Below are positions 1 to 18,419 of a DNA stretch of 20,000 nucleotides, one piece after another. The notes beneath the pieces were generated by a model, which was not told the origin of the DNA, ran no database searches, and saw only the letters and a program-made list of their open reading frames with translations. Positions within the stretch are counted from its first letter, which is position 1. Each line of letters starts with the position of its first letter. The stretch comes from an uncultured virus (IMG/VR IMGVR_UViG_3300042471_000812) (lineage: Duplodnaviria > Heunggongvirae > Uroviricota > Caudoviricetes). The stretch lies in the IMG/VR virus record IMGVR_UViG_3300042471_000812; one strand, given 5' to 3'. The position numbers were made by a program, and so were the translations under genes.

Positions 1-489
1 AAGTCCTTTACTATTGGCGAGGAGGGTTCTCGTACTGGTTATGGTGAAAATGTTGAGTCTAATACTTTCAATATGAAAGTTAATAGGTTGGAAACTGTGG
101 AAACTTATACTGGTGATAAGATTTTGACTGTTGGTTTATTTAGAATGGAAAAGGGGGACATTATACCCCCAGAAATATCAAAATACGTTCCTTCTGATAA
201 AACAGAAAAAAGGGTTTTTGTTGTCGGAGAGGTGCAAACTTCATATAAAACAAATGTAGGGACAAGGGATAGTGGTGGTACTGTGTATGTTCCTGCTACT
301 AAGCAAAATATAAGTGCCATTATTTCAAAGCTTACTCCATCAGACAAGGAAACAAGAAAGATGCTTGAAGATATTAATACTGGCAGGCAAAAGCTTGGTG
401 ATGGTAGGATAATCGGCGCAGCAACGAAGGGCGCCGAAAGGCAACCTAAGAGTGGTTTTAGTTTGTTAGAATTTGATAATATAGCATAA
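1..489 (+). CDS. 3' part of a hypothetical phage protein (possibly virion/ejection-associated), truncated by the window start
   Basis: The frame of ORF 73..489 is open back to base 1 (KSFTIGEEGSRTGYGENVESNTFNM...), so ATG 73 is probably internal. The TAA stop overlaps the next ATG (TAATG). Confidence 0.75.
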   Translation, partial: KSFTIGEEGSRTGYGENVESNTFNMKVNRLETVETYTGDKILTVGLFRMEKGDIIPPEISKYVPSDKTEKRVFVVGEVQTSYKTNVGTRDSGGTVYVPATKQNISAIISKLTPSDKETRKMLEDINTGRQKLGDGRIIGAATKGAERQPKSGFSLLEFDNIA

Positions 490-3400
490 TGAGTAAAGAG
501 ATACTAAAAGGCATATTTGAGGAGAACATAGCTCCTGTGCGTGAAGACATAACCTTTGAGGGTTGGGTAGATAAGATTAGGGATAACGAGGAGTACAAGG
601 TGGGTTTATTTGAGAACTACGTCCAGCCGAGTATGCCTGAGGCCACATTTGAGGAGTTTAATTCTAATGCGTTTGGAAGCCTGGGAAAGGTGGAGGCCCC
701 ACTTGCTGGGGCGCAATCCGAAGAAAGTTTTTCCCCTACCGAATCCGTATCGAGCGAATTTGAGGTAGGGCCACCTGCTGGGGGAACGCCTCCCGGTGTT
801 GAGCCAAAGGGTGCGCCGGTTGCTGAGGCTGCTGCGTTGGTTGGGGAGGTTGGCTCAGAGGGTGAGCCTACGATTATTGGGCAGGAGTTAGACCCTTACA
901 CGATTGTTGAGGAGGACGATAGGAATTTCTTTGAGCGTCTTTTTGGCGAGGAGCGTTATCGCAGGGTAACGGAGCGTGCGGTGGAAACGATACCGGCTTT
1001 GACTAGGTTATTTGGCAAGGCTGCTGCGAAGGATGTTCAGGAAGAGATAAATGATTTAGGTAGGGCTATGGAGGCTGACCCTGAGTTTGTGATTAAGGCT
1101 TCGCAGAATGGTCTTTTCACTACGAACAATTTAGCCACGTATTTAAGTCAAGAGGCTGCCGGGGATAAGAAGGGCGCCGAAGAGATAAATATGTTTTTAG
1201 AAAAGGGTGCAACGGGCAAGACTACTCAGTTTGAAAGGTTCAAGACGCTATATGCTCCAATCGAAAAAGAGCGCAACGAGGCTATACAAAAAGAGTTATT
1301 ATCCAACAGAGATTATGTAGCGTTAAGGGGAAAGATAGATGCTGAGTTTAATAGTCAGCGAGTAGGTGTTGATGAGAAGTATGATTTTAAGGCTTTGATG
1401 GGTGAGGAGTTTAAGGTTGGCGAGAAGGAATTGTTGGGCAAGTACGAATCTGCCACGCTTGCTTTACCTATGCAATTAGAAACCAAGGCGAGTGAGTTGA
1501 AGTTTGACTATCAGACCAAGGTGAATAATGGGCAGATGGGTGTTAACGAAGCCAATGAAGGCTTAAAGCGTGATTTAGATGCTTATGGTGCGGAGTTGCA
1601 GAAGCAGAGTGATGAGGCGTTGGGGGAGTATAATTCCGGCGTTAGCGCCTTGGCCGAAAGGGTACAAAAGGGTGTTAAGGATAAGCCAGAGTTCAAGGCT
1701 TACATGGACGAGTTGAACGACTTGCGTAATGGGGTTGTTGAGAGTTTTTCTGGCGATTACCAAAAGATTCAGCAGGCGGTGTTCAACAATATTGCCCCTA
1801 AGTACAACTCTAAGATTGAGAGTGCTATAACGAATAGCATGAAGGGTGAAACTCCTTTGCTTAACAAGTCTGGGGTAAAGGGTAATATTGACAAGATTTT
1901 GGGAAATAGGGGTTGGGATTACTTACCTTTCGACCAGAAGAAGGCTGCGTTGGATACTATGTTTGGCACTGCCTTATCTAAGTTAAAGCGTAGTGGTGTT
2001 CAGATAAACGATGGTGTTGTTGCTGGGTTGCGTGCTGAGTTTGACGATGCGTTTATGGATAGGGCGTATTTTACCAAGAAGGGTACTCCTTCTTTGTTTA
2101 TGGTAAAGACGCGTGCTATTGAGGAGGCTGAACGTCTTGACGAGATGCTTAAAGAGCGTGAGGCAAAGACTGGCACTAAGACATACACTTCTGGGATATA
2201 TGGTTCGGAGTTTGGTGTTGGCGGTATGGGTTATGATGATACTGACGTTCAGGAGTTGCGGTTAGCGAGGGAAAAGTTACAGGAGATAATTGAGATGCCT
2301 GAAACGATGTCGGATAATGAGTGGTCGAATTTTTGGAATGGGTTAACTTCTGGGAAGGTTGTTGATTATTTGCCTTTTGTTTCTGGGTTAAAGAATTTGA
2401 GTGGCACGTTGGCGTTGTATCGTGCTGTGGGTAAGGACACTGAATCTGCCCGATATTTGAAAAACGCCGAAGCGTTAAATTCCACATACAAAAATATGTA
2501 TGAGGTAAACAACATGGCTTCGGATTGGTATAGGGCTGGTAGGGGTACTGCCGAGAGTTTACCTTTTATGATGGAGTTTGCTGCCACCGCAGGGATAGGT
2601 AGTGGCGTAAGGATAGCAACTGAAAAGGTTGCTGTAAAGTTGCTTGGCAAACAGGCAGAAACGATGGTTGGCAAGTCGTTTAAGGTTCTTGCTGGAACGC
2701 TTGTTAGTTCGTTAGCGCAAACCACGTTAAACCCTCAGCGTTATGTAGATGAAACGTTGAAGCGTATGACGCCCCAGATGACTATTGCGTTTTCTCCTGA
2801 GGGTGATGATTTGGTTGCCATGTTAGACAGCAGTGATGCTGAGGGTGGCTTTGAGGCTGCGTTAAAAGGTTTTGGTGTAACCGCTTCCGAGTATTTCTCT
2901 GAGGGGTTAGGTTTTGCGGGAGCGAGGGCAATGAAAGCGTTGGGGAGTAAGATGTTGCAGAATGAGTTTTTGAAGAAGGCGTATGTGGGTTGGTATATGA
3001 GCAAGTTCAATTTAGATACACCTACTGCGTTTAAGAAGATTGCGGAGATGGGTGGTTGGAATGGATTTTTGATGGAGTTTGGCGAAGAGCTTGTAAACAT
3101 ACCGTTGACCAATTTGATTACTGGTGATGCGAAGGTAATGGAGGGCATCATTAAGGACGGGGAGTTTGATACTGAGAACTTGGCCGATATTGCTCGCACC
3201 TTATTGCCTATTAGCCTTGCTGGCGGTTCAGTTAGTTTGGGTGGTTTAGCTATCAACAAAATAGCCCCTGAGGGCGTTACGGTAACGTATAGGGACATTA
3301 ACAACCTGCCTACTACCGAAACCATTAACAAGGGTGTTTGGGACGCTGTAACTGAGGTTATGAAGTCTCCTTCCAAGGTGCGTGATTTTATTGCGAATGA

Positions 3401-6400
3401 GTTACCTAAGTTAAAGGTAGATGGTAAGGGTAGGGAGTTAGTAACTTCTATGTTAGAGCGTTCTGCTATTGAGTTTGATAGGGGTGTTGTTGGTGTTGGT
3501 ACGCGTCAGGTTGCTGAGGCTACTTCTCCTTTGGAGGTAACTTTCGAGCCTATTCCCGAAACGGGGGGCGCGCCGAAGGTTGAAATAATTGCCAAGCGTA
3601 GGCAGAAGTTAAACAAGGACAGGACTAAGTTAGTACCTACTGGTGGTTTTGATTATTTCGCAAAGGTAGGGGATAGAGAGGTTAAGTTAAGTGATGCTGA
3701 GTATAAGGCATATAAGGATAGCGGTGTGTTGCCTGAGAGTGTTTCGGCGGTTGAGGCTACTCCGAAAGTTGAGGGGGAGGCTGTTACTCCTGAGGCGGTT
3801 TCTCCTGAGGTTCCTGCGTTAAGAGATGTAGAGAGTACGGCTGAGGCGTTGGAGGGGGTTAATAATAAAAACCCACAAGAAATTATTGACGCTTCAAAAA
3901 AAATAGACAAAGTTGAATATATTGAAGAAGGTGAAGCAAGGGAAATTATAGAAAGTTACACTCATTATAAAAGTGGGAACTCAAAATCTCCAGCAACAAG
4001 ATGGGCGGGATGGTTTCAATCTATAAACGCAGCAAATAAAAAGTTTATAGTTGAAGATATACAAAATGACCCTAAATTAAGAAATGCAATGCTTTCTTTA
4101 TTTTTTGATGTATATAAGTCAGAGTTAAACTTCAAGGGCTCTTTTGATGATTTTTTAAATACCGAAATTACTCTTTATAGGGGTGTTACTTTGGCTGATA
4201 AAAAGGGCGTTGGCCAAGAAGGATTTTCAGCTTTTTCTACTACAAAAAATAGGGTTTCTGCATACGCTGATGAACAAGCCATAGGCAAAGGACAAGTTAA
4301 AGAAATTAAAATAAAGCCCATTGATACTTATGGTGCTGTGAATTATATTGGAGGTGGAGAGATAGAGGTTTTAGTCCCAACTGAATTTAAAAATGAAACA
4401 ATAAGGCAAGATTTTATCAGGCTTTTAGAATTAAATATAGGATTGTTTAGTGAAGAGCAAACAGAGCTGCTTGAGAAATACTACGACAAAGAAGATTACA
4501 TATCTGGATTGGCATTTATCAAATCTATAATTTCTTCCAAACCAAAACAACTTTCCGAAGCCTACCACAAGGCGAAGGAGGACGGAAGCAATCCTGAGTT
4601 AGTTAGTGCGGTAGAGGAGTTGTTAGGCAAACCCACCCAAACGCCCGAAGTCGCCGAAGGGCAACCTGCCGAGGTTATTTCCCCAGAGGTAGCGGAAGTG
4701 TTATCAACCGAGGACACCACACGTATTGCGTTAGAATCGCTAGAGGTGTTACCTGAGGGCATAGAGAGTGCCGAGGAAGGTGCGCGTATCTACCACGAAG
4801 CGATAGGCAAGGAGGAGCGTACTGAGGCTGAGGACGCTGTTGTTATGGCGGTGGAGGATGCGGTTATTGGTGGTGCGGTTGTGCCTGAGGTGGAAACTCC
4901 CGAAGCGGTAGAAACCGCCGAAACAGTTACCCCCGAAGAGGTATCTACCGAGGGTGTTACCCCAGAGGTTCCTGGGGTGGTGGAAGCCGCCGAAGGGCAA
5001 AGGCAGCCAAGTCGTGTAGCCACCTTTTTCTCTGGTGCAGGCACAATGGAAGCGTCTTTACCCAACGCCCAATCTGTTATGGCTGTTGAGTTCAACCCAG
5101 CGTACGTTGAAGCGTACAACAAAGCCTTTGGTGTTGAGTATGAAGCCAAAGATGTTAGGGATATTAACCCTGAGGAAGTGATAGCTTCTAAGCCGGACAT
5201 ATTCCATGCTTCTCCTGTTTGCAAGAACTTTTCGGCGGCCAAGAATAAACGAACAGTTTTGAAGTCAGATATGGAATCGGCTGATGCTGTTGCGAGGGTT
5301 ATTCGTGAGGCACAACCACCGATTGTAACGATAGAAAATGTTCCTGACTACCAAGGCACTGTTCCATTTGAAACAATAGTAAAGGCGTTAGAAGATGCGG
5401 GCTACACCTTTGATGTTGGAGTTTACAACTCTGCGGATTTCGGTGGTGTTCAAAATAGGGAGCGTCTGTTAATTCGTGCTGTGAAGAGTGGCGAACTGCC
5501 ACCTATCCAAGAGAAAACTGCTCCTGGGGATTGGTATTCTGCAATAGAGGATTTGATTGAAGGCGCTCCGGATTCAAAGTTTGAATCTAGGAGTGAGAGT
5601 GAGAATTGGGAGATGACTAGGATTAAGGATATGGTGCGTAAGGGTAAGTTAGATGCAACCAAGCCAATCATTACTATGGGTGGTTCTGCTTCTAGCGGTG
5701 TGGCTGCTGCTGCCAATGCTGGCGGCCCTGCGCCTACGTTATTAAGCACTTCGCGTTCTGTTCCAAGGATTATTTTGCCTGATGGCACAGTTAAGAGGGT
5801 AACTCCTGAGATGATGCGTAGGCTTATGGGATTGCCTGAGAGTTATCCTATACCTTCCAACCCAAAGATTGCGAAGGAAGTTTTGGGGAATGGCGTTGAT
5901 GGAGCGTTTACTAGGGCGTTGATTGACCCGTTGTTGAATCGCGCCGAAACGCAACCCAGCGCCGAAGCGCAACCCAGCGCCGAAGGTTTAACTTCTAAGG
6001 AGAAAGCAGAACAAGCCAACAAGCGCGCCGAAGAGATAGCCGAAAAGATACGCAAGAATTTAAGAGGTAGGGGCGGCATTACAGGCATAACGCCTTTTTC
6101 TCGCGCCAAGCGTTTAGCGGAGGTGGATAGGGCTACCCTTGCGTTGATTAAGGATTACATTTACCAAAAGGTTCTTGCCGGTGCATACACCTTCAAGGAT
6201 TTTGTGGAGGATATGAAGGAGAACAGCAAGCGGATTTTTGGTGTGCAGATTGAGGTTGCTAATTCTGATAAATCAATATTCCATTCAGCGCAGTCTCGTT
6301 TTGAGATAAACGATGCTTTTGCTCAGGAGATATTGGATTTGAAAGATGATTTTCTCTTTTCTATTGCCGCTATGTCTGGCCGAATGAATATGAATTTTCA

Positions 6401-9400
6401 GGAGTTTATATCTTCAAATAGTGCATTGGTTAACGGATTTGTGAATCGCGCCGAAAGCATTTACGGTTTAGACGATCAAGCTATGATGTTAGTGCAAGAG
6501 ATGTACCAAGACGCGTTACGTGCTGCTGCCAACCGCGCCGAATCGTACACTACTCTAGAAGATGTAAAGAAGTTCCACGAAACCAAGGAAGAGTTGTTAG
6601 GCTTAGAGAGGGACATGGAAAGGGCGCGTATCAACGAAGAGATAAAGCGTAGGCGTAACTGGTTGAGCAGAAACTTTGACAAGTTCCAGCGTGCGTTTAT
6701 TACTCCTGTGAAAAACTTTAATCGTGCGTTTGGGTATAGGGCTGGTAAGTTTTCCGATTACAGAACTTCGCAAGAGCGTGATGTATATTCTGCACGTAAG
6801 TATCGTATGGGTGCTTCCACCAAGGCAGGCAATTGGTACAATGCTATCCACAACAAGATTTATGGTGGGTTGTCTTGGTTTGAGAAGGTAGAGTTAGACA
6901 AGTATTTGATTTATCGTAGGATTGTAGAGGTTTCTGAGGTACGCAATCAAAGGGCTGCGGAGTATAAGAAACTCGAAGCTGAATTAGCGGCTGGCGTTAC
7001 TCCGGTAAGAAAGCAAGAGATTAAGGAGGCTATGGCGGAGCTTGAAAAGGCGGGCATGGGTGAGGTTAAGAGTGGTTCGATTATGGTTGATGGTAAGAAG
7101 GAGGAATACACTGTTGCGCTTGCTGAGGCGTTTGTGAATGACATAAACGCTCGTAATGATGCTTTGGCAATCAAAATTAGGAATCGCGCCGAAATGTACA
7201 CTGAGGCTAACAATGAGTTGTTAAAAATGCGTTTAGATTCAGGCGAAATATCTCAGGAGGCTTACGATTCAATGCAGAAGCGTGATTATGTTCGCAGGTT
7301 GTTTGTTGACCTTTCAAACACAACCTTAGATGAAGCAAATTATTCCCCTGTATCTAAAGAGATAAAAGCTATCAAGGAAGGTAGTGAGGACGCAATATTG
7401 GAGATGGATACTCAGGCTTTGTTGCAGATTAACGCTCAAATAACTTTCGATAGTGTTGCTAAAAACAACTTCATTAAAAAGGTTGTTGGTTGGTCGGAAG
7501 CTAAGCAGCAGGATTATTTAGACAAGGCGCTTGAAAAGTTCAAGGACGCTCGTGCTAGAACGGAGAGGTATCTTCGTTCTAGTCCTAGGCCATTAACTCA
7601 AGACGAGATAGACAGATTCATAAAGGAGCAGACGTTATTTATTCCTTTGAGTAATGATGCGAAGGTTCCTAGTGGGTTTACTGCGCAGAAGTATTTTGTA
7701 GATGGTGTTGAGAAGAGGGTTGCTGTTCGTAATGATATTGCAAACATATTTCAAACGCCAAGTGGAAGGGGTATTAACGAGAACAGTTTTGCTATTAAGG
7801 CTATATCTGCGCTTCTTTTAACTCCGGTCATTAAGGCTTCGGCGGTATTTGTAAACCCAGCGTTTGCGATAGGTAACTTTGCCCTTGACGTAATTCATGC
7901 GTCAATGGTTACTAGGGATTTGTATAAGTCGTTTACTTTTAACCTTGGTACTATTTTGGCAAAGGCTACGGGATATACTGCGGAGAACATATATCGCAAG
8001 GCGGTGAAGTATGGTGCTTCCCTTTTTGGTAGAACTGCCAGGGATTCAAAGTTCGAGCGTCTTGTAAAGGATTACTTTGAGCATGGTGGAGGTATGTCTG
8101 GCCTTTCCAATCCTTCGTCAAGAATGTATAGTGATAAGCTGTCTAGTAGTGCTTTGCGTAGGAGCTTTGGTGATGCTATGGATGGTATTATTGCTGTGTT
8201 GGACGTAATAAATTCTTTGCAATCGGGTTCGGAGCTTATTACTAGGGTTATTGTTTATGAGGCTGCATTGGATAAAAACATAGCGGCGTATAGGGAGAAG
8301 AATGGTGTTGACCCAGTTGGGGAGGATTTAGCGTTAATGAAGATGTCTGCGGCGGCGAGTTCTGCTGATTTGATTGATTTCAGGGAAGGCGCCGAAGCAA
8401 CAAAAGCGTTCGACCAAACCCTTCTGCCTTTCTTAAACGCTATGATTCAAGGTGCCAAGGCAGAGATTGATTTTGCATCCAAGAATCCTTTACTTGCTGC
8501 TGCAAGATTGGCAGAGTTTGGAGGTATGGCACTTGGGGCTGCTCTGTACAATGCTAATTCCGGAGATGAAGATGAAAAAGAGGGTATCGTTGGCTACAAT
8601 GGTATTACCGATTACATAAAGTCGAACTTCTTTGTAATGATGATGCCTTGGACTAAGAAGAATGAGCGTGGGGAAATTGTCCGTCCGTTCATATCAATTA
8701 AGTTGCCTGCTGCGTTAAAGGCCACGAACATTTTGGTTAGCGGTATGGTTGCTGACCAAGGGGCGGAGAATACTATTGGCCAAATGGCAAGTGCGTTAGA
8801 GGGTGGTTATGTTCCTGAGATTGGTTCTGTATCTCCTACCGCCCAGATTTTTATGGCTTTGAATTACAATAGGGATGCGTTTAGGAAGGGCGCTCCGGTG
8901 TATCGTGGTAGGGCAGACGTGTTATTAACTGAGCGTTTCAACGCAGGGGAAACGAAGGCTATTTATCGTGATTTGTTTGGTGCTATGTATGATTTAATCA
9001 ATGAGGATGGCGAGAATGAGGGTGTTTTAGGTTTTGATGAGGCGGGGCCGGCGCAATGGCAAGCGGCTTTCGAGAAGGCAATATCTTCAAACAATCCATA
9101 CTACCTTGGCATTACGTCCACCTACGCGACCATATCTTCGCTATACGGCAAGGATAATAAGAAAGAGGTAGATGCGCTTATGGACGAGAAGTTTGCTGCC
9201 TTAAATGCGTTTGGGAGCAGAGTATATCGCGAGCCGAATAGTAGTGTTCAGCAGAAGAATATGAAGGATAGGAAACAGGTTGATTTCCTTCGCGACCAGA
9301 TAGGTTCTTGGCAAAAAAAGAACGATGATGCTATTGAGTTTGCTGCCAAGACGATACGGGATATTAACAAGTTAGAGGGTAACTCGAAGAATGTTAAAAT

Positions 9401-9929
9401 AGATTTATTCTTTGACAGGGAGGTGTTTAATTATATTTCTGATGCTCAAATGATTAAGGGGATAAAGGATCAAGGCATAAAAGATATTCCTGAGAACTTA
9501 GATGACCTTAATAAAGTTATCAATAAAGAGCAAACTCGTTTGTCGTTGAGACTTTTAGAAGAGTTTAAACCAAACTTTGTTTTCAAGCATCCGGCGTTAA
9601 AGAGTTATGCGCAGAGTGAGGATTCTTATGTTGGTTTAAACGCCGAAATGATTAACAAAATTGCTAAAGAGTATGACAGTTCTAGGAATAGGAGGTCATA
9701 TCTTATTGCGTTGAAGTTTGTTGCTGGTGATGATTTTAAGAATATCGTTCAACAAATTGGGGCGCACGAAAGGGACTTGTCTGTTGTAGAAGGTATTACA
9801 GAAACTACGAGTGCAACTAAGTACAAGCGACTTTATCTTCGTCCTGATAATAGAAGCTCAAAGCCAATATCCTCCGAGTCTGCAATAAACAATTTGATAC
9901 TGCTAAAATATTTATTGACAAATGAGTAA
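489..9929 (+). CDS. Giant (3146 aa) polyvalent / internal virion (ejection-type) protein with ART-like, C5-DNA methyltransferase and LPD38-like domains
   Basis: Uninterrupted 9.4-kb ORF, translationally coupled at both ends. It has mostly helical-looking charged regions, Glu/Pro/Val/Thr linkers and the internal domains listed separately. It lies just upstream of structural and tail genes. Confidence 0.9.
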   Translation: MSKEILKGIFEENIAPVREDITFEGWVDKIRDNEEYKVGLFENYVQPSMPEATFEEFNSNAFGSLGKVEAPLAGAQSEESFSPTESVSSEFEVGPPAGGTPPGVEPKGAPVAEAAALVGEVGSEGEPTIIGQELDPYTIVEEDDRNFFERLFGEERYRRVTERAVETIPALTRLFGKAAAKDVQEEINDLGRAMEADPEFVIKASQNGLFTTNNLATYLSQEAAGDKKGAEEINMFLEKGATGKTTQFERFKTLYAPIEKERNEAIQKELLSNRDYVALRGKIDAEFNSQRVGVDEKYDFKALMGEEFKVGEKELLGKYESATLALPMQLETKASELKFDYQTKVNNGQMGVNEANEGLKRDLDAYGAELQKQSDEALGEYNSGVSALAERVQKGVKDKPEFKAYMDELNDLRNGVVESFSGDYQKIQQAVFNNIAPKYNSKIESAITNSMKGETPLLNKSGVKGNIDKILGNRGWDYLPFDQKKAALDTMFGTALSKLKRSGVQINDGVVAGLRAEFDDAFMDRAYFTKKGTPSLFMVKTRAIEEAERLDEMLKEREAKTGTKTYTSGIYGSEFGVGGMGYDDTDVQELRLAREKLQEIIEMPETMSDNEWSNFWNGLTSGKVVDYLPFVSGLKNLSGTLALYRAVGKDTESARYLKNAEALNSTYKNMYEVNNMASDWYRAGRGTAESLPFMMEFAATAGIGSGVRIATEKVAVKLLGKQAETMVGKSFKVLAGTLVSSLAQTTLNPQRYVDETLKRMTPQMTIAFSPEGDDLVAMLDSSDAEGGFEAALKGFGVTASEYFSEGLGFAGARAMKALGSKMLQNEFLKKAYVGWYMSKFNLDTPTAFKKIAEMGGWNGFLMEFGEELVNIPLTNLITGDAKVMEGIIKDGEFDTENLADIARTLLPISLAGGSVSLGGLAINKIAPEGVTVTYRDINNLPTTETINKGVWDAVTEVMKSPSKVRDFIANELPKLKVDGKGRELVTSMLERSAIEFDRGVVGVGTRQVAEATSPLEVTFEPIPETGGAPKVEIIAKRRQKLNKDRTKLVPTGGFDYFAKVGDREVKLSDAEYKAYKDSGVLPESVSAVEATPKVEGEAVTPEAVSPEVPALRDVESTAEALEGVNNKNPQEIIDASKKIDKVEYIEEGEAREIIESYTHYKSGNSKSPATRWAGWFQSINAANKKFIVEDIQNDPKLRNAMLSLFFDVYKSELNFKGSFDDFLNTEITLYRGVTLADKKGVGQEGFSAFSTTKNRVSAYADEQAIGKGQVKEIKIKPIDTYGAVNYIGGGEIEVLVPTEFKNETIRQDFIRLLELNIGLFSEEQTELLEKYYDKEDYISGLAFIKSIISSKPKQLSEAYHKAKEDGSNPELVSAVEELLGKPTQTPEVAEGQPAEVISPEVAEVLSTEDTTRIALESLEVLPEGIESAEEGARIYHEAIGKEERTEAEDAVVMAVEDAVIGGAVVPEVETPEAVETAETVTPEEVSTEGVTPEVPGVVEAAEGQRQPSRVATFFSGAGTMEASLPNAQSVMAVEFNPAYVEAYNKAFGVEYEAKDVRDINPEEVIASKPDIFHASPVCKNFSAAKNKRTVLKSDMESADAVARVIREAQPPIVTIENVPDYQGTVPFETIVKALEDAGYTFDVGVYNSADFGGVQNRERLLIRAVKSGELPPIQEKTAPGDWYSAIEDLIEGAPDSKFESRSESENWEMTRIKDMVRKGKLDATKPIITMGGSASSGVAAAANAGGPAPTLLSTSRSVPRIILPDGTVKRVTPEMMRRLMGLPESYPIPSNPKIAKEVLGNGVDGAFTRALIDPLLNRAETQPSAEAQPSAEGLTSKEKAEQANKRAEEIAEKIRKNLRGRGGITGITPFSRAKRLAEVDRATLALIKDYIYQKVLAGAYTFKDFVEDMKENSKRIFGVQIEVANSDKSIFHSAQSRFEINDAFAQEILDLKDDFLFSIAAMSGRMNMNFQEFISSNSALVNGFVNRAESIYGLDDQAMMLVQEMYQDALRAAANRAESYTTLEDVKKFHETKEELLGLERDMERARINEEIKRRRNWLSRNFDKFQRAFITPVKNFNRAFGYRAGKFSDYRTSQERDVYSARKYRMGASTKAGNWYNAIHNKIYGGLSWFEKVELDKYLIYRRIVEVSEVRNQRAAEYKKLEAELAAGVTPVRKQEIKEAMAELEKAGMGEVKSGSIMVDGKKEEYTVALAEAFVNDINARNDALAIKIRNRAEMYTEANNELLKMRLDSGEISQEAYDSMQKRDYVRRLFVDLSNTTLDEANYSPVSKEIKAIKEGSEDAILEMDTQALLQINAQITFDSVAKNNFIKKVVGWSEAKQQDYLDKALEKFKDARARTERYLRSSPRPLTQDEIDRFIKEQTLFIPLSNDAKVPSGFTAQKYFVDGVEKRVAVRNDIANIFQTPSGRGINENSFAIKAISALLLTPVIKASAVFVNPAFAIGNFALDVIHASMVTRDLYKSFTFNLGTILAKATGYTAENIYRKAVKYGASLFGRTARDSKFERLVKDYFEHGGGMSGLSNPSSRMYSDKLSSSALRRSFGDAMDGIIAVLDVINSLQSGSELITRVIVYEAALDKNIAAYREKNGVDPVGEDLALMKMSAAASSADLIDFREGAEATKAFDQTLLPFLNAMIQGAKAEIDFASKNPLLAAARLAEFGGMALGAALYNANSGDEDEKEGIVGYNGITDYIKSNFFVMMMPWTKKNERGEIVRPFISIKLPAALKATNILVSGMVADQGAENTIGQMASALEGGYVPEIGSVSPTAQIFMALNYNRDAFRKGAPVYRGRADVLLTERFNAGETKAIYRDLFGAMYDLINEDGENEGVLGFDEAGPAQWQAAFEKAISSNNPYYLGITSTYATISSLYGKDNKKEVDALMDEKFAALNAFGSRVYREPNSSVQQKNMKDRKQVDFLRDQIGSWQKKNDDAIEFAAKTIRDINKLEGNSKNVKIDLFFDREVFNYISDAQMIKGIKDQGIKDIPENLDDLNKVINKEQTRLSLRLLEEFKPNFVFKHPALKSYAQSEDSYVGLNAEMINKIAKEYDSSRNRRSYLIALKFVAGDDFKNIVQQIGAHERDLSVVEGITETTSATKYKRLYLRPDNRSSKPISSESAINNLILLKYLLTNE
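3861..4550 (+). other. AT-rich in-frame cassette encoding a putative R-S-E type ADP-ribosyltransferase domain within the giant protein
   Basis: Motifs in canonical order: ITLYRG (R at 4179), FSAFST (4224-4241), EIEVLV (E-x-E at 4359-4367). GC drops abruptly: 31/60 at 3781-3840 versus 17/60 at 3901-3960. Confidence 0.7.
5013..5935 (+). other. C5-cytosine DNA methyltransferase domain within the giant protein
   Basis: Ordered motifs: I FFSGAG, II AVEFNP, III DVRDI, IV HASPVCKNFS (catalytic Cys codon 5220), VI IENVP (5331-5345), VIII QNRERL, IX RVTPEMMRRLMGLPESY, X LGNGV (5883-5897). Confidence 0.92.
5941..5985 (+). repeat. 18-bp tandem repeat, about 2.5 copies (GCGCCGAA(A/G)CGCAACCCA; AETQPS-AEAQPS-AE)
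   Basis: Directly visible immediately after methyltransferase motif X. Confidence 0.9.
8361..9150 (+). other. LPD38-like (large polyvalent protein-associated) C-terminal region
   Basis: Pattern DF..G.........PFLNAMIQG, followed by a hydrophobic helix and then Y..ITDYIKSNFFV...ISIKLP, with an upstream NPAFAIGNFALD segment. Recognised from memory of this family; boundaries are approximate. Confidence 0.6.
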
Positions 9930-10326
9930 CTACACCAAACCGAAATTAAGGGAGAGCATTAAGGATAGGGTAATGGCTTCTAGCAAGGGTGGCAAGCCTG
10001 GCCAGTGGTCAGCGCGGAAGGCACAGCTTTTATCTCAGGAGTATGAGAAGAAGGGTGGGGGGTATAGTGGCGGCAAGAGTGGTGCCCAGAAGAGTTTAAG
10101 TAAGTGGACTAAGGAGGAGTGGGGTACTAAGAGTGGCAAGCCTTCTACGCAGGGGCCGAAGGCTACTGGTGAGCGGTATTTACCAAAGGCAGCGCGTGAG
10201 GCGTTATCGCCGAAGGAGTATGCTGCCACTTCTGCCAAGAAGCGTAGTGATACTGCCAAGGGCAAGCAGTTTAGTAGTCAGCCCAAGAAAATAGCAACCA
10301 AAACAAGTAAATATCGTGGAAAGTAA
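9922..10326 (+). CDS. Small basic conserved viral protein (DUF5872-like)
   Basis: 134 aa, Lys/Ser/Gly-rich. The YTKPKLRE...KGGKPGQWSARKAQLL..EY..KGGGY and SLSKWTKEEW...ERYLPK motifs are typical of a widespread viral family. Overlaps the giant gene stop. Confidence 0.8.
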   Translation: MSNYTKPKLRESIKDRVMASSKGGKPGQWSARKAQLLSQEYEKKGGGYSGGKSGAQKSLSKWTKEEWGTKSGKPSTQGPKATGERYLPKAAREALSPKEYAATSAKKRSDTAKGKQFSSQPKKIATKTSKYRGK

Positions 10327-10489
10327 GTTCAAGAAATTGCAAAAGAGTGTAGCCAAGGGCTACGCCGAAAAGGGTAGTAAGAAAGCTATGGAGATTGGCG
10401 CTGCCGTTGCGTATAAGCAGGGTGTCAAGAAATATGGCAAGGAGGTTATGACTAAGAAATCCATTGCCGGAAAGAAGAAAAAAAAGTAG
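10316..10489 (+). CDS. 57-aa Lys-rich small protein (not in ORF track)
   Basis: GTG 10316 to TAG 10489 gives MESKFKKLQKSVAKGYAEKGSKKAMEIGAAVAYKQGVKKYGKEVMTKKSIAGKKKKK. It overlaps the upstream stop and fills the gap in the operon. Confidence 0.75.
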   Translation: MESKFKKLQKSVAKGYAEKGSKKAMEIGAAVAYKQGVKKYGKEVMTKKSIAGKKKKK

Positions 10490-10497
10490 TATCTTTG
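10490..10497 (+). promoter_or_regulatory. Possible Bacteroidota-type -7 promoter element (TAnnTTTG)
   Basis: TATCTTTG sits in a short AT-rich intergenic gap 14 nt before ATG 10512. The nearest TTG upstream (10464-10466) is at non-ideal spacing. Confidence 0.4.
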
Positions 10498-10511
10498 AAA
10501 CAAAAATTGTT

Positions 10512-10610
10512 ATGAAAGCAACTACCAAGGGTGGTTCAACCACCAAAACAAAAGTTACCACTAGTGGTGGCTCTGGAAAGAAAGTAAAAGTAACCACTAA
10601 ATCCTGTTAA
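10512..10610 (+). CDS. 32-aa Lys/Thr/Gly-rich peptide (not in ORF track)
   Basis: MKATTKGGSTTKTKVTTSGGSGKKVKVTTKSC, with an A-rich leader, internal repeats of (V)TT(K/S)GGS, and a stop 2 nt before the next ATG. Confidence 0.65.
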   Translation: MKATTKGGSTTKTKVTTSGGSGKKVKVTTKSC

Positions 10611-10612
10611 TT

Positions 10613-10768
10613 ATGTACGGAATGAAGAAAGCTGGCGGTAGCAAAACCGCTAAAATGGGCAAAATGGCTGGCAAAATGGCTGGCATGGTTGCTGGTGCTA
10701 AGGCTGGCGCTAAGGCTGGCAAGGCTATGGGCAAAATGGCTGCTGCCAAGGTGTCTAAGAAAAAATGA
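10613..10768 (+). CDS. 51-aa Lys/Ala/Gly/Met-rich histone-H1/protamine-like peptide (not in ORF track)
   Basis: MYGMKKAGGSKTAKMGKMAGKMAGMVAGAKAGAKAGKAMGKMAAAKVSKKK. It has no acidic residues, 12-bp tandem repeats (GGCAAAATGGCT, GCTAAGGCTGGC) and an ATGA overlap with 10765. Confidence 0.75.
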   Translation: MYGMKKAGGSKTAKMGKMAGKMAGMVAGAKAGAKAGKAMGKMAAAKVSKKK

Positions 10769-11070
10769 AGAAAGACTCTCGAATAGAGCGTGCAGGTGTG
10801 GCTGGGTTTAATAAACCTAAGGCCACACCTTCCCACCCTACTAAGAGCCATATTGTAGTGGCTAAGGAGGGTGATAAGGTAAAGACTTTGCGCTTTGGTC
10901 AACAGAATGTCAAGACCAACCAAACTGTCGGGCAGAGGGAGGCTTTCAAGTCTCGCCATGCCAAGAACATTGCGAAGGGCAAAATGAGTCCTGCGTATTG
11001 GGCAGATAAGGTAAAGTGGTCTAGTTCCAAGACAAAATCTCCATCTAAGAAATGGGTTAAGGGAAGCTAA
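10765..11070 (+). CDS. Small basic conserved phage protein (101 aa)
   Basis: NKPKATPSHPTKSHIVVAKEGDKVKTLRFGQQ...FKSRHAKNIAKGKMSPAYWADKVKW pattern, seen in aquatic phages near structural genes. Coupled on both sides. Confidence 0.8.
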   Translation: MKKDSRIERAGVAGFNKPKATPSHPTKSHIVVAKEGDKVKTLRFGQQNVKTNQTVGQREAFKSRHAKNIAKGKMSPAYWADKVKWSSSKTKSPSKKWVKGS

Positions 11071-11609
11071 TGTTACAGATAAATTTCACCGCCAATCTTG
11101 CAGAGAATTGCAAGGACATCAACTTGGTAGATACTACTGGGGATTATGATGCTGTAAACAATCCGGAAGGGTGGGGGGCGCCGAATGCGTCCACCTCTAA
11201 CATTTCCCAGTCAAACATATACATAACCCCTCCAAGTGGCATAAGCTACATCATAGGCGCCACAGCGTTACTAAACGATGAGCAGACTATCTTAGGCACT
11301 TCAATAGGCTATACTACCAAGTTGCCTGATGGCTATTACGACATAAGGTATGAGGTCCAGGGCACGTTTGGTGGGAATAGTGGTGTGTTGAGTAGTGAGC
11401 GTAAGAACGTGTTGTTTTACGGCAATGTATTCTGTTGCATTGAGAAGATGAATGTTGAGGGGGATTGTTTGTGTGAAACCTCTGAGCTTGAAGATATGCT
11501 GCTGTTGTTTGAGGCTATGAAGGCCGCCGATGAGTGTTGCGATATTGTTTGTGCCAAAAAGATACTTAATGAATTAACCAGGCGTTGTGCCAAAAAATGT
11601 AATTGCTGA
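11070..11609 (+). CDS. Putative structural protein: beta-rich N-terminal domain with a Cys-rich C-terminus
   Basis: 179 aa. DTTGDY...GWG...LPDGYYDIRYEV beta-sandwich-like region; the tail is Cys-rich (CC, CLC, CC, CxxxCxC). Confidence 0.7.
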   Translation: MLQINFTANLAENCKDINLVDTTGDYDAVNNPEGWGAPNASTSNISQSNIYITPPSGISYIIGATALLNDEQTILGTSIGYTTKLPDGYYDIRYEVQGTFGGNSGVLSSERKNVLFYGNVFCCIEKMNVEGDCLCETSELEDMLLLFEAMKAADECCDIVCAKKILNELTRRCAKKCNC

Positions 11610-12412
11610 TGAGCTGTAATTGTCAAGATACTCCTTGTTCGTGTGTAGATGGGTTGAACTCGTTTACCACTTTAGCGGCTAGTTTCACTCAGCCAGGTGT
11701 TGGGTTAAATGTTACCGTTTCCACCACTAACCTCGGCCAGTTGAATAACCGGTGGGTGGGTGTTAATCAGATTTTATATGTTGTGGGTGGTGGTTACTAC
11801 CAAGTGGTTAGTATCCCTAGCTTAGTATCTATCCAGCTTAAAAACTTGGGATATACTGGCAATGCTGCCCCTGCCGCTACGGTTGCTTCTGGGGGCAATG
11901 TGTCCCCAGGTGGGTTAGCTGGGGTTACCGGCCCTTCTGGGGTTAATGGCACTGTATTGTTGTTTAACGACCACACTCAGCAAACTGCGACTTCTAGTGC
12001 CACGTTATACACTTACTCAATGCCCCAAGGCACGTTAGCGCCGAATGGATCACAGCTAGAGTTAGAATTTTACATAAACACTTCTGTCAGCCCAAACACA
12101 AGGAATATGCGTATTGGGATTGGGGCCACTACCTTTGTTTTCCAGAACTTAGGATTATCTTCAAGCACTTTCGTTCAGAGGGGCTATGCTACGGTTACGA
12201 GGCTCAGTGCAACAACTGTTGCAATTTCTGTGAAGTCTGAGACATCTACTGTTTCCGGGAACTTAATCACTACGGAAAACTACTACACTACTTCTGCTGC
12301 TGTTACGAACTTGGATAGTGGTGGTGCCATTGCTATTACTTTGCAGAGTGTTATCTCTACTACGGGCACAATAACTGCCGAATACTTTACAATTAAAAGA
12401 AACTTGATATGA
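11609..12412 (+). CDS. Putative tail/fibre-associated structural protein
   Basis: ATG 11609 (TGATG overlap) is preferred over TTG 11603. N-terminus MSCNCQDTPCSC, short G-X-Y run (GLAGVTGPSGVNG), Thr/Ser-rich beta C-terminal domain. Confidence 0.7.
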   Translation: MSCNCQDTPCSCVDGLNSFTTLAASFTQPGVGLNVTVSTTNLGQLNNRWVGVNQILYVVGGGYYQVVSIPSLVSIQLKNLGYTGNAAPAATVASGGNVSPGGLAGVTGPSGVNGTVLLFNDHTQQTATSSATLYTYSMPQGTLAPNGSQLELEFYINTSVSPNTRNMRIGIGATTFVFQNLGLSSSTFVQRGYATVTRLSATTVAISVKSETSTVSGNLITTENYYTTSAAVTNLDSGGAIAITLQSVISTTGTITAEYFTIKRNLI

Positions 12413-14064
12413 TAGTCCAGTCCTACAAAACGATTGCAATAGGTGTAGCCAATTTAACTTTGGAGGGGGCTTCTTCTGCTTCCACGTTAAACTTGGATGA
12501 GAATGACCTTTTGAAGTATTATGTAATGACTACTGCTGGGGTAAGTTTATCTTCTCCGCTAACGATTGCGTATGGTGGGGCAGGTACTCCTCCAACGGGA
12601 ATGGTTGGAATGTTTTTCTTCCCTGGGGGTGTTACCTTGGGGGCAAATACTTTCACGATATTTGGGTATGCGTTGAGTGCTACTGAGGCGTTGAAGGGCG
12701 CTGTGATTGCGGTGGTGTATAATGGTTCTGCTTTTAGTGTTTCTGTGTTACCGGCGGCAAATGCTACTGAGTGGATAGAAACTGGAGATATTGCTGCCTT
12801 GGCGGTTACTAATGCCAAGATAGCGACTGGTATTGATGGAAGCAAGGTTTCGGTTGGTAGTATGCCTGCTGACAGGTTAGCTGCTGCGAGCATTACAAAT
12901 GCTCAGTTGGCCACCATGCCGACCTTGACTATTAAGGGCAACAATACGGGGGGCGCTTCCACTCCCATTGACCTTACGGCAGCTCAGGTATGGGTGATGC
13001 TTGGGGGTCAAATCTTTACTGCTGCTGCCGGCACGAGTAGTTTTGTGCAAAATGGTAGTGGTTCTACGGCTGCTGGCAATTATGCTGGGGCTGTTGGGCA
13101 GAGTAATGTTGCCAGTGGTCTTAATTCCTTTGCTCAGGGCAACGGAAACACCACGAGTGGGGCTAGGGCTTCGGCTAGTGGCAATGCCAACACAGCGAGT
13201 GGTTCTAACTCAAAGGCTGTGGGGGATAGCAACGTTGCTTCTGGGGTTAATTCTTTCGCTGGGGGTATAAGCTCTACGGCGAGTGGCACTCAGTCATTTG
13301 CGTATGGGGAGGGTGTTACTGCTAGTGGCAATAATTCTATTGCTTTAGGTGAAGATGTAACGGCTAGCCGGGAGGGTGAATTTGCCCGAAACAATGGGAA
13401 CACTGTAACGCTCCGCAAGCATGCTATTAACTTATTGCAATCTGCCACTACGAATGCTACTCCAGCAATAATGTTTTTGGGGGATAGTGGTTTATCGTTT
13501 AACGTGCCCACTAATTCTTCTGTTGCGTTTAGCGCTTTAGTAAACGCCGTTCAGGATAATACTGGTGGCGGTGGCGCCCCTGGAGATAGTGCAAGTTGGC
13601 ATTTGACTGGCTTGGTTAAGAATGTGGGGGGTACTACTTCCCTTGTGAATGGTATTAACTTCGACACTACTTTGTCGCGTACTATTCGCGAAGCGGGAAC
13701 GGCTCAGGCTGGTGCTGCTGGCACTATTACCTTGCAGGCTGGTGCTACTTCCATTACCAATGCGTTTGAGCGCTCCTACATTTACATCATTAGCGGTACC
13801 GGTTCTGGGCAGAATAGGGAGATTACTGCGTACAATGGCACTACGAAGGTTGCTACGGTATCTCCCAACTGGAGTGTTAACCCTGACAATACTTCTGTGT
13901 ATCGTATTGTTACCCAAGAGCATTATCAGTCCACCACTATTGGTTGGGACGTGAATGCTGTGGCAAACAATGCTACTGACACGTTGGATATAACGGTAAC
14001 TGGTGAGGGGAGCAAGAACATTGTTTGGTATTGCCGGTTAGAAACCATTGAATTAGGGTTCTAA
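12409..14064 (+). CDS. Tail fibre / adhesin-like protein with YadA-head-like (Hep_Hag) 14-aa repeats
   Basis: 551 aa, Gly/Ala/Ser/Thr-rich. VTNAKIA/ITNAQLA fibre motifs; about seven 14-residue repeats of the type N-x-ASG-x-NS-F-A-x-G at about 13060-13380. Confidence 0.8.
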   Translation: MIVQSYKTIAIGVANLTLEGASSASTLNLDENDLLKYYVMTTAGVSLSSPLTIAYGGAGTPPTGMVGMFFFPGGVTLGANTFTIFGYALSATEALKGAVIAVVYNGSAFSVSVLPAANATEWIETGDIAALAVTNAKIATGIDGSKVSVGSMPADRLAAASITNAQLATMPTLTIKGNNTGGASTPIDLTAAQVWVMLGGQIFTAAAGTSSFVQNGSGSTAAGNYAGAVGQSNVASGLNSFAQGNGNTTSGARASASGNANTASGSNSKAVGDSNVASGVNSFAGGISSTASGTQSFAYGEGVTASGNNSIALGEDVTASREGEFARNNGNTVTLRKHAINLLQSATTNATPAIMFLGDSGLSFNVPTNSSVAFSALVNAVQDNTGGGGAPGDSASWHLTGLVKNVGGTTSLVNGINFDTTLSRTIREAGTAQAGAAGTITLQAGATSITNAFERSYIYIISGTGSGQNREITAYNGTTKVATVSPNWSVNPDNTSVYRIVTQEHYQSTTIGWDVNAVANNATDTLDITVTGEGSKNIVWYCRLETIELGF

Positions 14065-14378
14065 TGGAGCCATACAAGTATGTGTGTAAATACTTAGATG
14101 CTTTGCACTCAGGGAACTGGGAGAAGGCTGAGGAGTATTTGGCATGTGCTAGGAAGGGCATTGTTGTTGTTATTCCCGACCCGAATGTTATCGGCCCCAA
14201 TGTTAGTTTGTATGTAAATGTTTGCAGTTATTTAGATGCTTTGCATTCTGGGAAGTGGGAACTCGCCGAAAAGTATCTTGCTTGTGCGAGGGCTTCATAT
14301 TTACTTTCAGGCTTACCCTTATTAACTGAGGGGGATGAGCCACTCCTTACCAATTTAGACGAAGAAATACTAGTGTAA
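14064..14378 (+). CDS. Hypothetical protein with an internal 27-aa duplication
   Basis: YKYVCKYLDALHSGNWEKAEEYLACAR (14073-14153) versus YVNVCSYLDALHSGKWELAEKYLACAR (14211-14291), 21/27 identical. Acidic LLTEGDEPLLT tail. Confidence 0.75.
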   Translation: MEPYKYVCKYLDALHSGNWEKAEEYLACARKGIVVVIPDPNVIGPNVSLYVNVCSYLDALHSGKWELAEKYLACARASYLLSGLPLLTEGDEPLLTNLDEEILV

Positions 14379-14379
14379 T

Positions 14380-15201
14380 ATGCCAAGAATATCAAATTTA
14401 CCACCGGCCTCTACGGTCAACGGCCCAGATTTACTACCCATTGTTCAGGGTGGAACCACGAAAAGGGCTACTAAAGACCAGCTTGTAGCTTCTACCTTGG
14501 CAGTTGCCAATGCAGCACAGGTAGATGCCACACAGGCCATTGCTGATGCTTCTAGCGCTCAGGCTACGGCTACTAGTGCATTGGCAAATGTAAACACTGC
14601 ATTGACTATTGCCAATACAGCCCTTTCGCAAGTAGGCACGGCAGTTCAAAAGACAGGCGATACGATGACTGGCGATTTGGATATGGGTAACAACCAAATT
14701 GAAAACTTGGGTACGCCGTTTGGCCCCGCCGATGCGGCAACCAAAACATACGTTGACACCGCCGATGCCTTGAAACTTGACAAATCAGGCGGCACAATGA
14801 CAGGGGCATTGAACATGGGGGCACAAAGCCTTACTAACCTTGGCACGCCAACAAATAACAGCGATGCGGCGAATAAAGGCTACGTGGATAGCGCATTGGC
14901 TGGCAAACAGAACACTGTTGCCACCACTACGGGGGTTGCTGTTGCATTGGTTACGCCGCAAGAATACGGCACTTATGCCGCACCCGAAACGGGCAATATT
15001 GCAGTTAGCTTGACCAATGCGGTGCGAGGCATTGACCAAATAGTTTACCACGATGATACGGTTGCACCGACAATTGTGGTAACAGGGGGCACGGCAATCA
15101 AGTTCGGGCCGATTGACTACAACCTTGCCAAAGTGAACCTGATTGTTTTCTTTTGGATGGGGGGCACGAATGTAGGTTACATCATAACACCAGCGGTTTA
15201 A
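14380..15201 (+). CDS. Tail fibre protein
   Basis: N-terminal RISNLP...DLLPIVQGGTTKRAT motif, an Ala-rich coiled coil, and two 44-aa repeats G.TMTG.L.MG....NLGTP....DAA.K.YVD starting at 14650 and 14782. Confidence 0.8.
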   Translation: MPRISNLPPASTVNGPDLLPIVQGGTTKRATKDQLVASTLAVANAAQVDATQAIADASSAQATATSALANVNTALTIANTALSQVGTAVQKTGDTMTGDLDMGNNQIENLGTPFGPADAATKTYVDTADALKLDKSGGTMTGALNMGAQSLTNLGTPTNNSDAANKGYVDSALAGKQNTVATTTGVAVALVTPQEYGTYAAPETGNIAVSLTNAVRGIDQIVYHDDTVAPTIVVTGGTAIKFGPIDYNLAKVNLIVFFWMGGTNVGYIITPAV

Positions 15202-15202
15202 C

Positions 15203-16006: not shown

Positions 16007-16275
16007 TAACACGAAACGAAATACCATTAGGCCAAGAAACCGAGTTTGTTGGCCTCTTAACCGAAACGCAAAAGGATAGTTTGGTAGGGCAGCTATTTGC
16101 CCCTGACAGCTACTACAACCCAATTCAAGATGGCAACGAGCCGCCCAACTGGGTGATTTCGGTTGAGGAGATTGACCAAACAACCAACGAAGAATTTATG
16201 TGGGTTAAGGATTTGCCTTTGATTCCTTGGGTTGCCCCTACACCAGTAAACCCATTTGAAGATGCGACCAATTAA
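16003..16275 (+). CDS. Small acidic protein, possibly a fibre assembly chaperone
   Basis: ATG 16003 overlaps the upstream stop (ATGA) and is preferred over 15901. VGLLTETQKDSLVGQ...YYNPIQD...NWVISVEE...WVKDLPLI. Function inferred from position only. Confidence 0.7.
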   Translation: MITRNEIPLGQETEFVGLLTETQKDSLVGQLFAPDSYYNPIQDGNEPPNWVISVEEIDQTTNEEFMWVKDLPLIPWVAPTPVNPFEDATN

Positions 16276-17877: not shown

Positions 17878-17973
17878 TTGTCGAACCACACAATCATTCC
17901 CTTTTCATCTTTCTTTACATTAACCAAATCTTCCTTATTGACTATTAGCATAGGGGATATGGAGTGGGTAATG

Positions 17974-18372: not shown

Positions 18373-18382
18373 GATAAAAGTT

Positions 18383-18410: not shown

Positions 18411-18419
18411 GTGGTTAAT

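Follow-up and report, generated by a model that had tools for sequence, protein, structure and literature searches.

Phage Proteins Predicted to Travel With the DNA

Phage-type polyvalent proteins, as set out by Iyer, Burroughs, Anand, de Souza and Aravind (2017; PMC5512222) in their main text, are giant polypeptides in which unrelated enzymatic domains are combined with LPD modules, which differ among relatives by mosaic domain swapping, whose genes lie among those for the virion and which have been predicted to enter the host along with the DNA. The same main text treats N6-adenine methylases tied to SF2 helicases as well as ADP-ribosyltransferases (ARTs) of the H-Y-D type (Tox-ART-HYD2), and presents DarB of phage P1 as a head protein containing a DNA methyltransferase that protects the incoming DNA from restriction in cis. 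Here we describe a protein of this kind from a stretch of 20,000 nucleotides (nt) of an uncultured virus of the Caudoviricetes (IMG/VR record IMGVR_UViG_3300042471_000812), the whole of which is called the window in the following. Its giant open reading frame (ORF) at 489..9929 (+) encodes a polypeptide of 3146 amino acids (aa), in which a probable ART-like domain of the R-S-E type and a C5-cytosine methyltransferase are embedded between two conserved scaffold modules. The window protein is a further member of the known phage polyvalent-protein class, as disparate domains in one polypeptide, a late-gene position and an LPD38-related module have all been found, while an embedded zincin-like peptidase, which is frequent and not universal in the class, has not. 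The best explanation of the whole, which we hold with modest confidence, is a polyvalent delivery scaffold with exchangeable enzyme cassettes that would be ejected as counter-defence cargo.

The comparison with the closest systems reveals differences as well as likenesses. The late-gene position is shared with the proteins treated in the main text of PMC5512222, whereas the window protein carries a C5 methylase (of a PVCK type) and an R-S-ExE ART-like domain and has neither a helicase nor a zincin peptidase motif. DarB is the functional model for the methylase cassette; its packaging has been shown, whereas that of the window protein is a prediction, and in DarB an N6-adenine methylase is joined to an SF2 helicase, in contrast to the C5 enzyme without a translocase found here. 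The DarB-type dyad of an NPPY/F methylase, LPD36 and an SF2 helicase is not present in the window protein. The Alt/VIP2 R-S-E ARTs such as Alt of phage T4 and the MuF-fused ARTs share the R-S-E active-site pattern with the window's ART-like domain, whose relatives are likewise fused to MuF and portal domains, and in the passages of PMC9503650 (Iyer et al., 2022) on these enzymes, such ARTs leave the phage head for the host together with the DNA. Unlike T4 Alt, the domain described here has no sequence match to the ADPrib_exo_Tox or Mod_ADP_RT models (leads from a protein-language Atlas reach 0.86-0.88), and it lies inside a 3146-aa scaffold and not in a small head protein.

A third comparison concerns crAss001, in whose virions the cargo proteins gp45 and gp46 as well as the giants gp47, gp49 and gp50, which are RNA-polymerase-associated, have been found by mass spectrometry; the sections of Bayfield et al. 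(2023; PMC10172136) on these cargo proteins predict them to be mostly helical and propose that they are extruded partly unfolded. Like them, the window protein is very large, mostly helical and encoded near a muzzle gene, and its phage has a muzzle of the crass type. Neither sequence nor fold comparisons have revealed a similarity between the window protein and these cargo proteins, and the crAss001 giants are RNA-polymerase-associated, whereas the window protein has no DxDxD-type motif. To judge by the gp numbers, the crAss001 cargo genes follow the muzzle gene gp44.

Conserved Flanks and Exchangeable Cassettes

When the 58 best giant homologues are mapped by BLAST, conserved regions at aa 1-1124 (anchor and body) and aa 1824-3146 are seen on either side of a variable middle. 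In the window protein this middle consists of the ART-like cassette (aa 1132-1339, 3882..4505, +), a helical segment with an acidic Pro/Glu/Val linker (aa 1340-1504, 4506..5000, +) that contains imperfect direct DNA repeats, and the C5-cytosine methyltransferase cassette (aa 1505-1823, 5001..5957, +). Two database relatives, P0002 and P0004, are 90-99% identical to the window protein in both flanks and lack both enzyme domains, while P0003, 96% identical from aa 1354 on, has kept the methylase and lacks the ART-like domain. In P0005 (89%), ParB_N and a weak ART-PolyVal match stand in place of the window's enzymes, and in P0007 and P0008 a Pfam ART-PolyVal domain occupies the position of the R-S-E domain and is followed by the methylase. 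Since near-identical relatives (97-99% in both flanks) are devoid of the ART-like domain, the methylase or both, the enzymes are exchangeable cassettes in a scaffold of two conserved modules.

The same differences are found in nature. The stretch 3400-6400 is present in 20 metagenome runs of lake water or freshwater, which come from 19 studies; nine of the runs may belong to the source campaign, and the contigs of four runs (X1, X10, X12 and X15) have been aligned to positions 3000-6800. Contigs of X12 and X15 join position 3778 to 4635/4636 and thereby skip the ART-like cassette, and X12 additionally joins 3853 to 4544, as well as 4996 to 5969, where the methylase is skipped beside another contig that contains it; for most of these joints, other sequence could replace the skipped part, and the uncovered parts in X12 and X15 (~3889-4523) have been counted as absent only where a contig joins across them. 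The skip junctions coincide with imperfect direct repeats in the DNA of the acidic linkers, which have been located at 3773-3811, 4853-4891, 4898-4922, 4970-4994 and 5960-5984. The cassette differences seen among database proteins thus also occur within natural samples, at repeat-bearing linkers. Near-identical phages gain, lose and exchange their cassettes, for which recombination within the repetitive linkers is the probable route, and such a turnover would be as expected for counter-defence cargo in an arms race.

Repetitive linkers together with several cassette variants in the lake samples are also the conditions under which contigs may be misjoined, and the earlier note had considered that the ORF might be an assembly chimera with no reads spanning its junctions. 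This we regard as highly improbable. In X1, which is possibly the source sample, one contig of 31,190 bases spans 3000-6800 with zero differences, and in X10, a run not flagged as source, contigs of ≥99% identity bridge 3669-4317, 4454-4709 and 4684-5206, so that three of the four domain junctions are covered there and all of them in X1; the junction from the methylase to the C-terminal module near 5960 is unbridged among the X10 pieces listed. The giant protein's cluster furthermore comprises four member sequences on seven contigs, and P0006 (3142 aa; 77% identity over aa 1471-3146) presents the N-terminal module, the methylase and the C-terminal module in the same order. Taking the bridging contigs into account, the ORF is not an assembly chimera.

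The C5-Cytosine Methyltransferase

The methyltransferase is the best-defined part of the polypeptide. PF00145 (DNA_methylase) matches aa 1510-1805 (nt 5016-5903) with an E-value of 2.8e-30 and 106.3 bits against a cut-off of 22, covering profile positions 3-312 of 324, and it is the sole Pfam family above threshold in the giant protein, which is also matched by the DNA methyltransferase families 116, 363 and 5999 of PHROGs. The domain aligns over its full length with M.HhaI (E ~4e-12), and motifs I (FFSGAG), IV (SPVCKNFS), VI (ENV), VIII (QNRER) and X (GNGV) are in register, which bears out the full set of C5-methyltransferase motifs that had been read from the letters of the window before. 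Among solved structures, tRNA enzymes of the Dnmt2 type match only in the N-terminal half, in contrast to M.HhaI, which matches over the full length. The catalytic cysteine is C1578 (nt 5220-5222) in motif IV. While all conserved motifs are shared with C5 methyltransferases of the M.HhaI type, motif IV reads S-P-V-C-K and not the usual P-C-Q, with Val for Pro before the Cys and Lys for Gln, and the domain is embedded here and not free-standing. The string SPVCKNFS or a close variant is shared by 102 of the giant phage proteins, 120 in number, that a homology search has listed, and the PVCK form of motif IV marks a conserved clade and not a decayed site.

Regarding the literature on such methylases, the word 'cytosine' appears in PMC5512222 only in the reference list, and 'Dcm', '5-methyl' and 'C-5' are absent from it. 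A full-text literature search, judged by titles and the beginnings of abstracts, has yielded no paper on C5 methylases in polyvalent proteins.

An ART-Like Domain of the R-S-E Type

The candidate catalytic residues of the ART-like domain, which the earlier note had placed at aa ~1125-1354, are R1231 (nt 4179-4181), S1250 in an S-T-T string, and E1291 and E1293 (nt 4359-4367). An exhaustive phmmer search among 1.84 billion representative proteins has retrieved 351 sequences at E≤1e-3, 61 at E≤1e-10 and 12 at E≤1e-30. In an alignment of 34 sequences, whose identity to the domain of the window protein is 22-57%, R1231 never varies, Y1230, G1232, F1246, E1291 and E1293 are kept in ≥90%, and the column of S1250, read by eye, has Ser or Thr everywhere except in one sequence; the strongest conservation in the alignment falls on the three motif positions. 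To judge from these homologues, the domain is a real and widespread one. No family has been found in a Pfam scan of aa 1105-1354 alone even at E≤10, ADPrib_exo_Tox, Mod_ADP_RT and ART-PolyVal included. Among 60 small homologues, 53 have no Pfam family at all and none has one over the ART-like region; the other seven are fusions to Phage_portal, Phage_Mu_F, NUDIX or InPase. A Pfam scan of 18 further giant carriers has returned PhageMin_Tail in three, LPD38 in two, ddrB-ParB, RelA_SpoT, ART-PolyVal, GNAT and Peptidase_M91 in one each, and no family in eight. Contexts of the portal, MuF and tape-measure type have been read by Iyer et al., in the portions of PMC5512222 and PMC9503650 that deal with them, as those of head-packaged, injected effectors.

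The structural evidence points weakly in the same direction. An AlphaFold model built from the 34-sequence alignment has a mean pLDDT (predicted local distance difference test) of 83.4; it begins with a helical lead-in, continues with a core of five strands and closes with a bundle of three helices at the C-terminus. A Foldseek search of this model against the PDB has given a best E-value of 0.054 and nothing at E≤0.001; most of its top rows are nevertheless ARTs, comprising Vis, ExoS, C3larvin, VIP2, iota toxin, ART2.2, Rhs ART toxins and Tpt1/KptA. The alignment profile has matched a single PDB chain, 2kxi_A, at a weak E-value of 0.049, with LYRG, S-T-T and ExE in register. This chain, labelled only 'Uncharacterized protein' in the table of matches, is probably the Neisseria ART NarE. 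Neighbours in the Atlas, which serve as leads only, belong to the ADPrib_exo_Tox, Mod_ADP_RT, DRAT and ART families with scores of 0.84-0.90.

Because the motif pattern is conserved and the structural support, if weak, is consistent, we consider the domain with good confidence to be ART-like, of the R-S-E type and outside every curated family. A binding module, an NADase or some other chemistry that shares the R, S-T and ExE pattern is an improbable alternative, against which the predominance of ART and Tpt1 folds in the top Foldseek rows, the alignment of all three motifs with 2kxi_A, the R-S-E ART families among the Atlas neighbours and the conservation of the three motif positions each argue weakly. 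Of what had been claimed for this domain at the outset, the R, S-T and ExE residues have thus held up across 34 homologues, whereas a match to an ART profile in Pfam has not been obtained.

The pairing of a C5 methyltransferase with an ART, which the earlier note had thought uncommon, has to be judged by the type of ART. C5 methylases are frequent among the giant phage proteins of sequence databases. Counted from precomputed domain assignments, PF00145 occurs together with ART-PolyVal (PF18760, H-Y-D type) in 41 of 120 listed giant proteins, so that there is nothing unusual about a giant phage protein with both an ART and a C5 methylase. A hidden Markov model of the R-S-E ART-like domain, in contrast, has detected only 4 of 123 giant proteins, among which the window protein alone has the pairing with PF00145, and the Pfam scan has found PF00145 in none of the 18 further giant carriers. 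The supposed rarity accordingly applies to the R-S-E type among the proteins examined and not to the H-Y-D type, and in terms of the domains recognised it is a combinatorial rarity, not a new principle.

The Scaffold Modules

The N-terminal anchor (aa 1-153, 489..947, +) has a small globular head followed by a Pro/Glu/Gly-rich linker, and it is kept with 49-100% identity in the 30 giant proteins that form the anchor family, the bodies of which differ. It is followed by the N scaffold module (aa 154-1124, 948..3860, +), which is conserved at 50-97% in a part of the family and contains a moderately hydrophobic segment at aa 904-923 and a sub-threshold LPD14 match at aa 845-888. The acidic Pro/Glu linkers that had been noticed between the domains are indeed present, at aa 61-140, 1081-1120 and 1441-1520, with an isoelectric point (pI) of 4.05 for the segment 1355-1504.

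The C scaffold module (aa 1824-3146, 5958..9926, +) belongs to a family of 26 proteins, is mostly alpha-helical and has hydrophobic segments at aa 2433-2471 and 2668-2686. Its core (aa 2122-2807, 6852..8909, +) is homologous to the LPD38-bearing modules of phage polyvalent proteins. In Pfam alone, LPD38 is a marginal match (aa 2703-2838, E 0.077, 13.5 bits against a cut-off of 27), and the initial claim of an LPD38-like C-terminus holds because of two other comparisons. An hhalign alignment of the C-module profile with P0175, which carries LPD38 at 2408-2575 (E 1.1e-30), has reached a probability of 98.8% with an E-value of 5.4e-17 over 529 columns (aa 2122-2807 to P0175 1951-2509), and in the Atlas aa 2100-2900 lie beside viral clusters with a score of 0.98, in which 61-63% of the members have LPD38. 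By these profile comparisons, the unit homologous to LPD38 modules is much longer than the Pfam LPD38 model.

In BLASTP, the C-module core matches aa 916-1512 of CDS0069 from Maribacter phage Panino, and aa 2108-2333 and 2445-2729 of the C module correspond to the C-terminus of gp120 and the N-terminus of gp121 from Cellulophaga phage phi46:3; phmmer on the same Panino and phi46:3 proteins has given none, and the BLASTP matches are the ones used here. The phi46:3 genes gp120/gp121 (L006:10314-16833) look like a split form of one module. The Panino protein (L005:9256-14742, 1829 aa) is annotated as 'tRNA methyltransferase', a label that looks unsupported because the protein has no PF00145, with SHOCT at E 0.022 as its only match, and shares the LPD38-related core.

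Further searches have been less informative. An AlphaFold model of aa 2024-3146 is poor (pLDDT 50.2), mostly helical and has no informative fold match, tblastn of aa 1-1124 against 50,697 phage records has found no match, a phmmer comparison of either scaffold module with PDB sequences nothing under E 0.45, and a search of BFVD only uncharacterised viral proteins, with a best E-value of 1.2e-3. By motif scan and Pfam, the giant protein contains neither an HExxH or HxxEH motif nor a peptidase family; Pfam also gives no SF2 or other helicase family, the sole Walker-A-like string being located at aa 723, and NPP[YFW] or DPP[YFW] motifs are likewise absent. A virion RNA polymerase hidden in the scaffold, considered by analogy to crassviruses, is unsupported, with neither a DxDxD-type motif nor a fold match.

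Exclusion of Cysteine

The giant protein contains a single cysteine in 3146 aa, and this is C1578, the nucleophile of the methylase. The other ORFs of the late arm have 74 cysteines in 9518 residues, and at that rate one cysteine or fewer in 3146 residues has a binomial P of 5.6e-10. In a survey of 27 family proteins of 1733-3260 aa (P0001-P0024 and P0270-P0272), the catalytic cysteine is the only one in the 14 proteins with a methylase except for P0022, which has five additional cysteines in its last six residues at a contig end. Of the 27 proteins surveyed, 11 without the methylase have zero cysteines, and a single one stands outside the motif in each of P0270 and P0271. A number of the presumed virion proteins encoded nearby likewise lack cysteine. 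This pattern suggests that cysteine is selected against in an exported protein, which may have to unfold and fold again, and that an active methylase is selected for. As a separate observation, a 179-aa ORF at 11070-11609 (+) among the tail genes, the neighbours of which are cysteine-poor, has 11 cysteines (6.15%) and no family match.

Gene Neighbourhood

The window is part of a viral contig of 65,101 bases with a CheckV completeness of ~90%, and megablast of the whole window against the 50,697 phage records has found no match. Read as the reverse complement, contig positions 1-19608 correspond to window positions 1-19608, and the final 392 bases of the window (19609-20000) extend beyond the contig. 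The giant ORF is open over its 3146 codons without an internal stop, in agreement with its first description, and its product has a mass of 347.9 kDa and a pI of 5.05. Its ATG overlaps the stop of an upstream 542-aa ORF (TAATG), the 3' part of which occupies 1..489 (+) and which has no cysteine and no family match, and the ATG of the next ORF, at 9922, results in an 8-nt overlap with the end of the giant ORF. Considering the overlaps at both ends, the genes therefore form a tightly coupled operon. The downstream ORF (9922..10326, +; 134 aa) matches phrog_14910 and phrog_17747, both of unknown function.

The order of genes is a muzzle-like gene, a 218-aa ORF, the 542-aa ORF, the giant ORF, small ORFs, tail-fibre-like genes, an amidase and a holin. 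The protein encoded two genes upstream of the giant ORF (1506 aa, L002:2439-6956, -) belongs to the crassvirus muzzle family crAss_MUZ (PF25731, E 1.1e-34) and also matches structural proteins of Cellulophaga phage phi14:2 and the crAss-like gut phage cr126_1. Downstream, three ORFs of 551, 104 and 273 aa (12409..15201, +) serve as markers of the late arm; the 551-aa ORF matches PHROGs of unknown function and has a sub-threshold YadA-head match, and the 273-aa ORF matches tail-fibre and head-decoration PHROGs. The lysis genes encode an Amidase_2 endolysin (16256-16684, +) and a holin (17100-17552, +). The muzzle-type protein upstream and the tail-fibre-like and lysis genes downstream substantiate the late structural arm that had been assumed for the ORF.

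Several other genes deserve mention. A crassvirus-type muzzle gene has here been found in a 65-kb phage from lake water. The arm of the giant ORF also encodes an N6_N4_Mtase (L002:13884-14621, -; E 6.3e-31) and a D12-class N6-adenine methyltransferase (L002:11695-12381, -; E 8.6e-8), and with the C5 enzyme the phage therefore encodes three DNA methyltransferases. A serine recombinase or DNA invertase (Resolvase, E 4.9e-25; L003:4385-5032, -) stands at the start of a long run of genes on one strand, at whose end lie the tail and lysis genes, and a MazG-like nucleotide pyrophosphohydrolase is encoded at 19288-19806 (-) on the opposite strand after the lysis genes.

Delivery and Alternative Explanations

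By analogy with the described systems and from the features of the sequence, the protein is most likely packed as ejected cargo, the context for which is given by the muzzle-gene neighbourhood, the portal, MuF and tape-measure fusions of ART-like homologues and the depletion of cysteine. The proposed mechanism starts from a polypeptide whose variable middle is enclosed by the anchor and N module (aa 1-1124) on one side and by the helical, LPD38-related C module (aa 1824-3146) on the other; this middle is occupied here by an R-S-ExE ART-like domain and a C5 methyltransferase, which acidic, repeat-bearing linkers set apart. The gene would be transcribed with the tail genes, two genes after the crassvirus-type muzzle gene, and its product would be packed into the particle as cargo and driven into the host before the DNA or together with it. 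There, the ART-like domain may ADP-ribosylate a host protein, for which arginine as the acceptor is a guess. Arginine-specific enzymes with an ExE motif include T4 Alt. The methylase, as a domain clearly recognised, would put 5-methylcytosine on DNA and thereby blunt restriction, with its target, timing and site being presumed.

Several points weigh against this delivery. By motif scan and Pfam, the giant protein has no HExxH peptidase motif and no SF2 helicase, and it therefore fits neither the processing scheme of Iyer et al. nor their DarB-type methylase-helicase mechanism. The products of gp120/gp121 in phi46:3 are annotated as 'hypothetical protein', and their neighbours as 'structural protein' by similarity to a related phage, which is a weak point. 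Relatives without both cassettes indicate that the enzymes are dispensable for the role of the scaffold, the genome encodes two further DNA methylases, and a methylase expressed late may protect progeny DNA without any injection. Orphan phage methylases that are expressed late act on replicated phage DNA. Methylation of progeny DNA in the producer cell would explain the same data as the methylation of entering DNA that the earlier note had proposed.

An action in the producer cell, in which the late-made methylase would modify replicated phage DNA before or during packaging, the ART-like domain would act late and packaging of the protein would be irrelevant, is accordingly a serious rival, because a helicase partner is missing and two other DNA methylases are encoded, although we consider it rather unlikely on balance. 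It would agree with the position of the gene in a late operon with translational coupling to structural genes, with the presence of the two further methylases in the same arm and with the lack of a helicase or other DNA-tracking partner, which distinguishes the protein from DarB as portrayed in the main text of PMC5512222; a co-injected methylase, so the reasoning goes, must also outrun the restriction enzymes. It leaves unexplained, however, why the enzymes are embedded in a 348-kDa scaffold free of cysteine (outside the methylase) beside a muzzle gene, and why ART-like domains have repeatedly been fused to portal, MuF and tape-measure domains. The scaffold itself may alternatively be the primary function, the N and C modules being parts of an ejectosome or internal core that form a trans-envelope conduit, with optional cassettes of small fitness effect. 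Such a conduit is formed by gp14-16 of phage T7 and has likewise been proposed for gp45/gp46 of crAss001. The near-identical flanks of P0002 and P0004 without any enzyme cassette would suit this possibility, as would the three hydrophobic segments (aa 904-923, 2433-2471 and 2668-2686), the position after the muzzle gene and the mostly helical C module, which resembles the crAss001 cargo as predicted in the relevant sections of PMC10172136; against it stands the selection that the cysteine pattern suggests for an active methylase, and we find it doubtful as the leading role.

Returning to the ejected counter-defence cargo, a more detailed version may be drawn that joins the above elements, to which we attach little more than a tentative standing. 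The protein would be a crass-like cargo platform, whose cysteine-free scaffold is threaded unfolded through the tail and whose cassettes are swapped in lakes at the repeat-bearing acidic linkers. The PVCK methylase would be the cytosine counterpart of DarB and methylate the genome in cis before phage expression, while the uncatalogued R-S-E ART family would modify a host protein.

Implications

Polyvalent proteins have been predicted as a main phage route for the delivery of counter-defence enzymes, and few of them have been tested. The searchable literature does not cover a clade of C5 methylases of the PVCK type that is widespread among giant phage proteins, an ART-like family of the R-S-E type with at least 351 proteins and no Pfam model, or a near-total exclusion of cysteine from scaffolds. 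With these, the catalogue of polyvalent proteins is extended, and the known concept is unchanged. The presence or absence of cassettes between near-identical lake-water phages furthermore amounts to a natural experiment: since such phages differ only by whether the methylase or the ART-like cassette is present, the function of the cassettes becomes testable by comparison.

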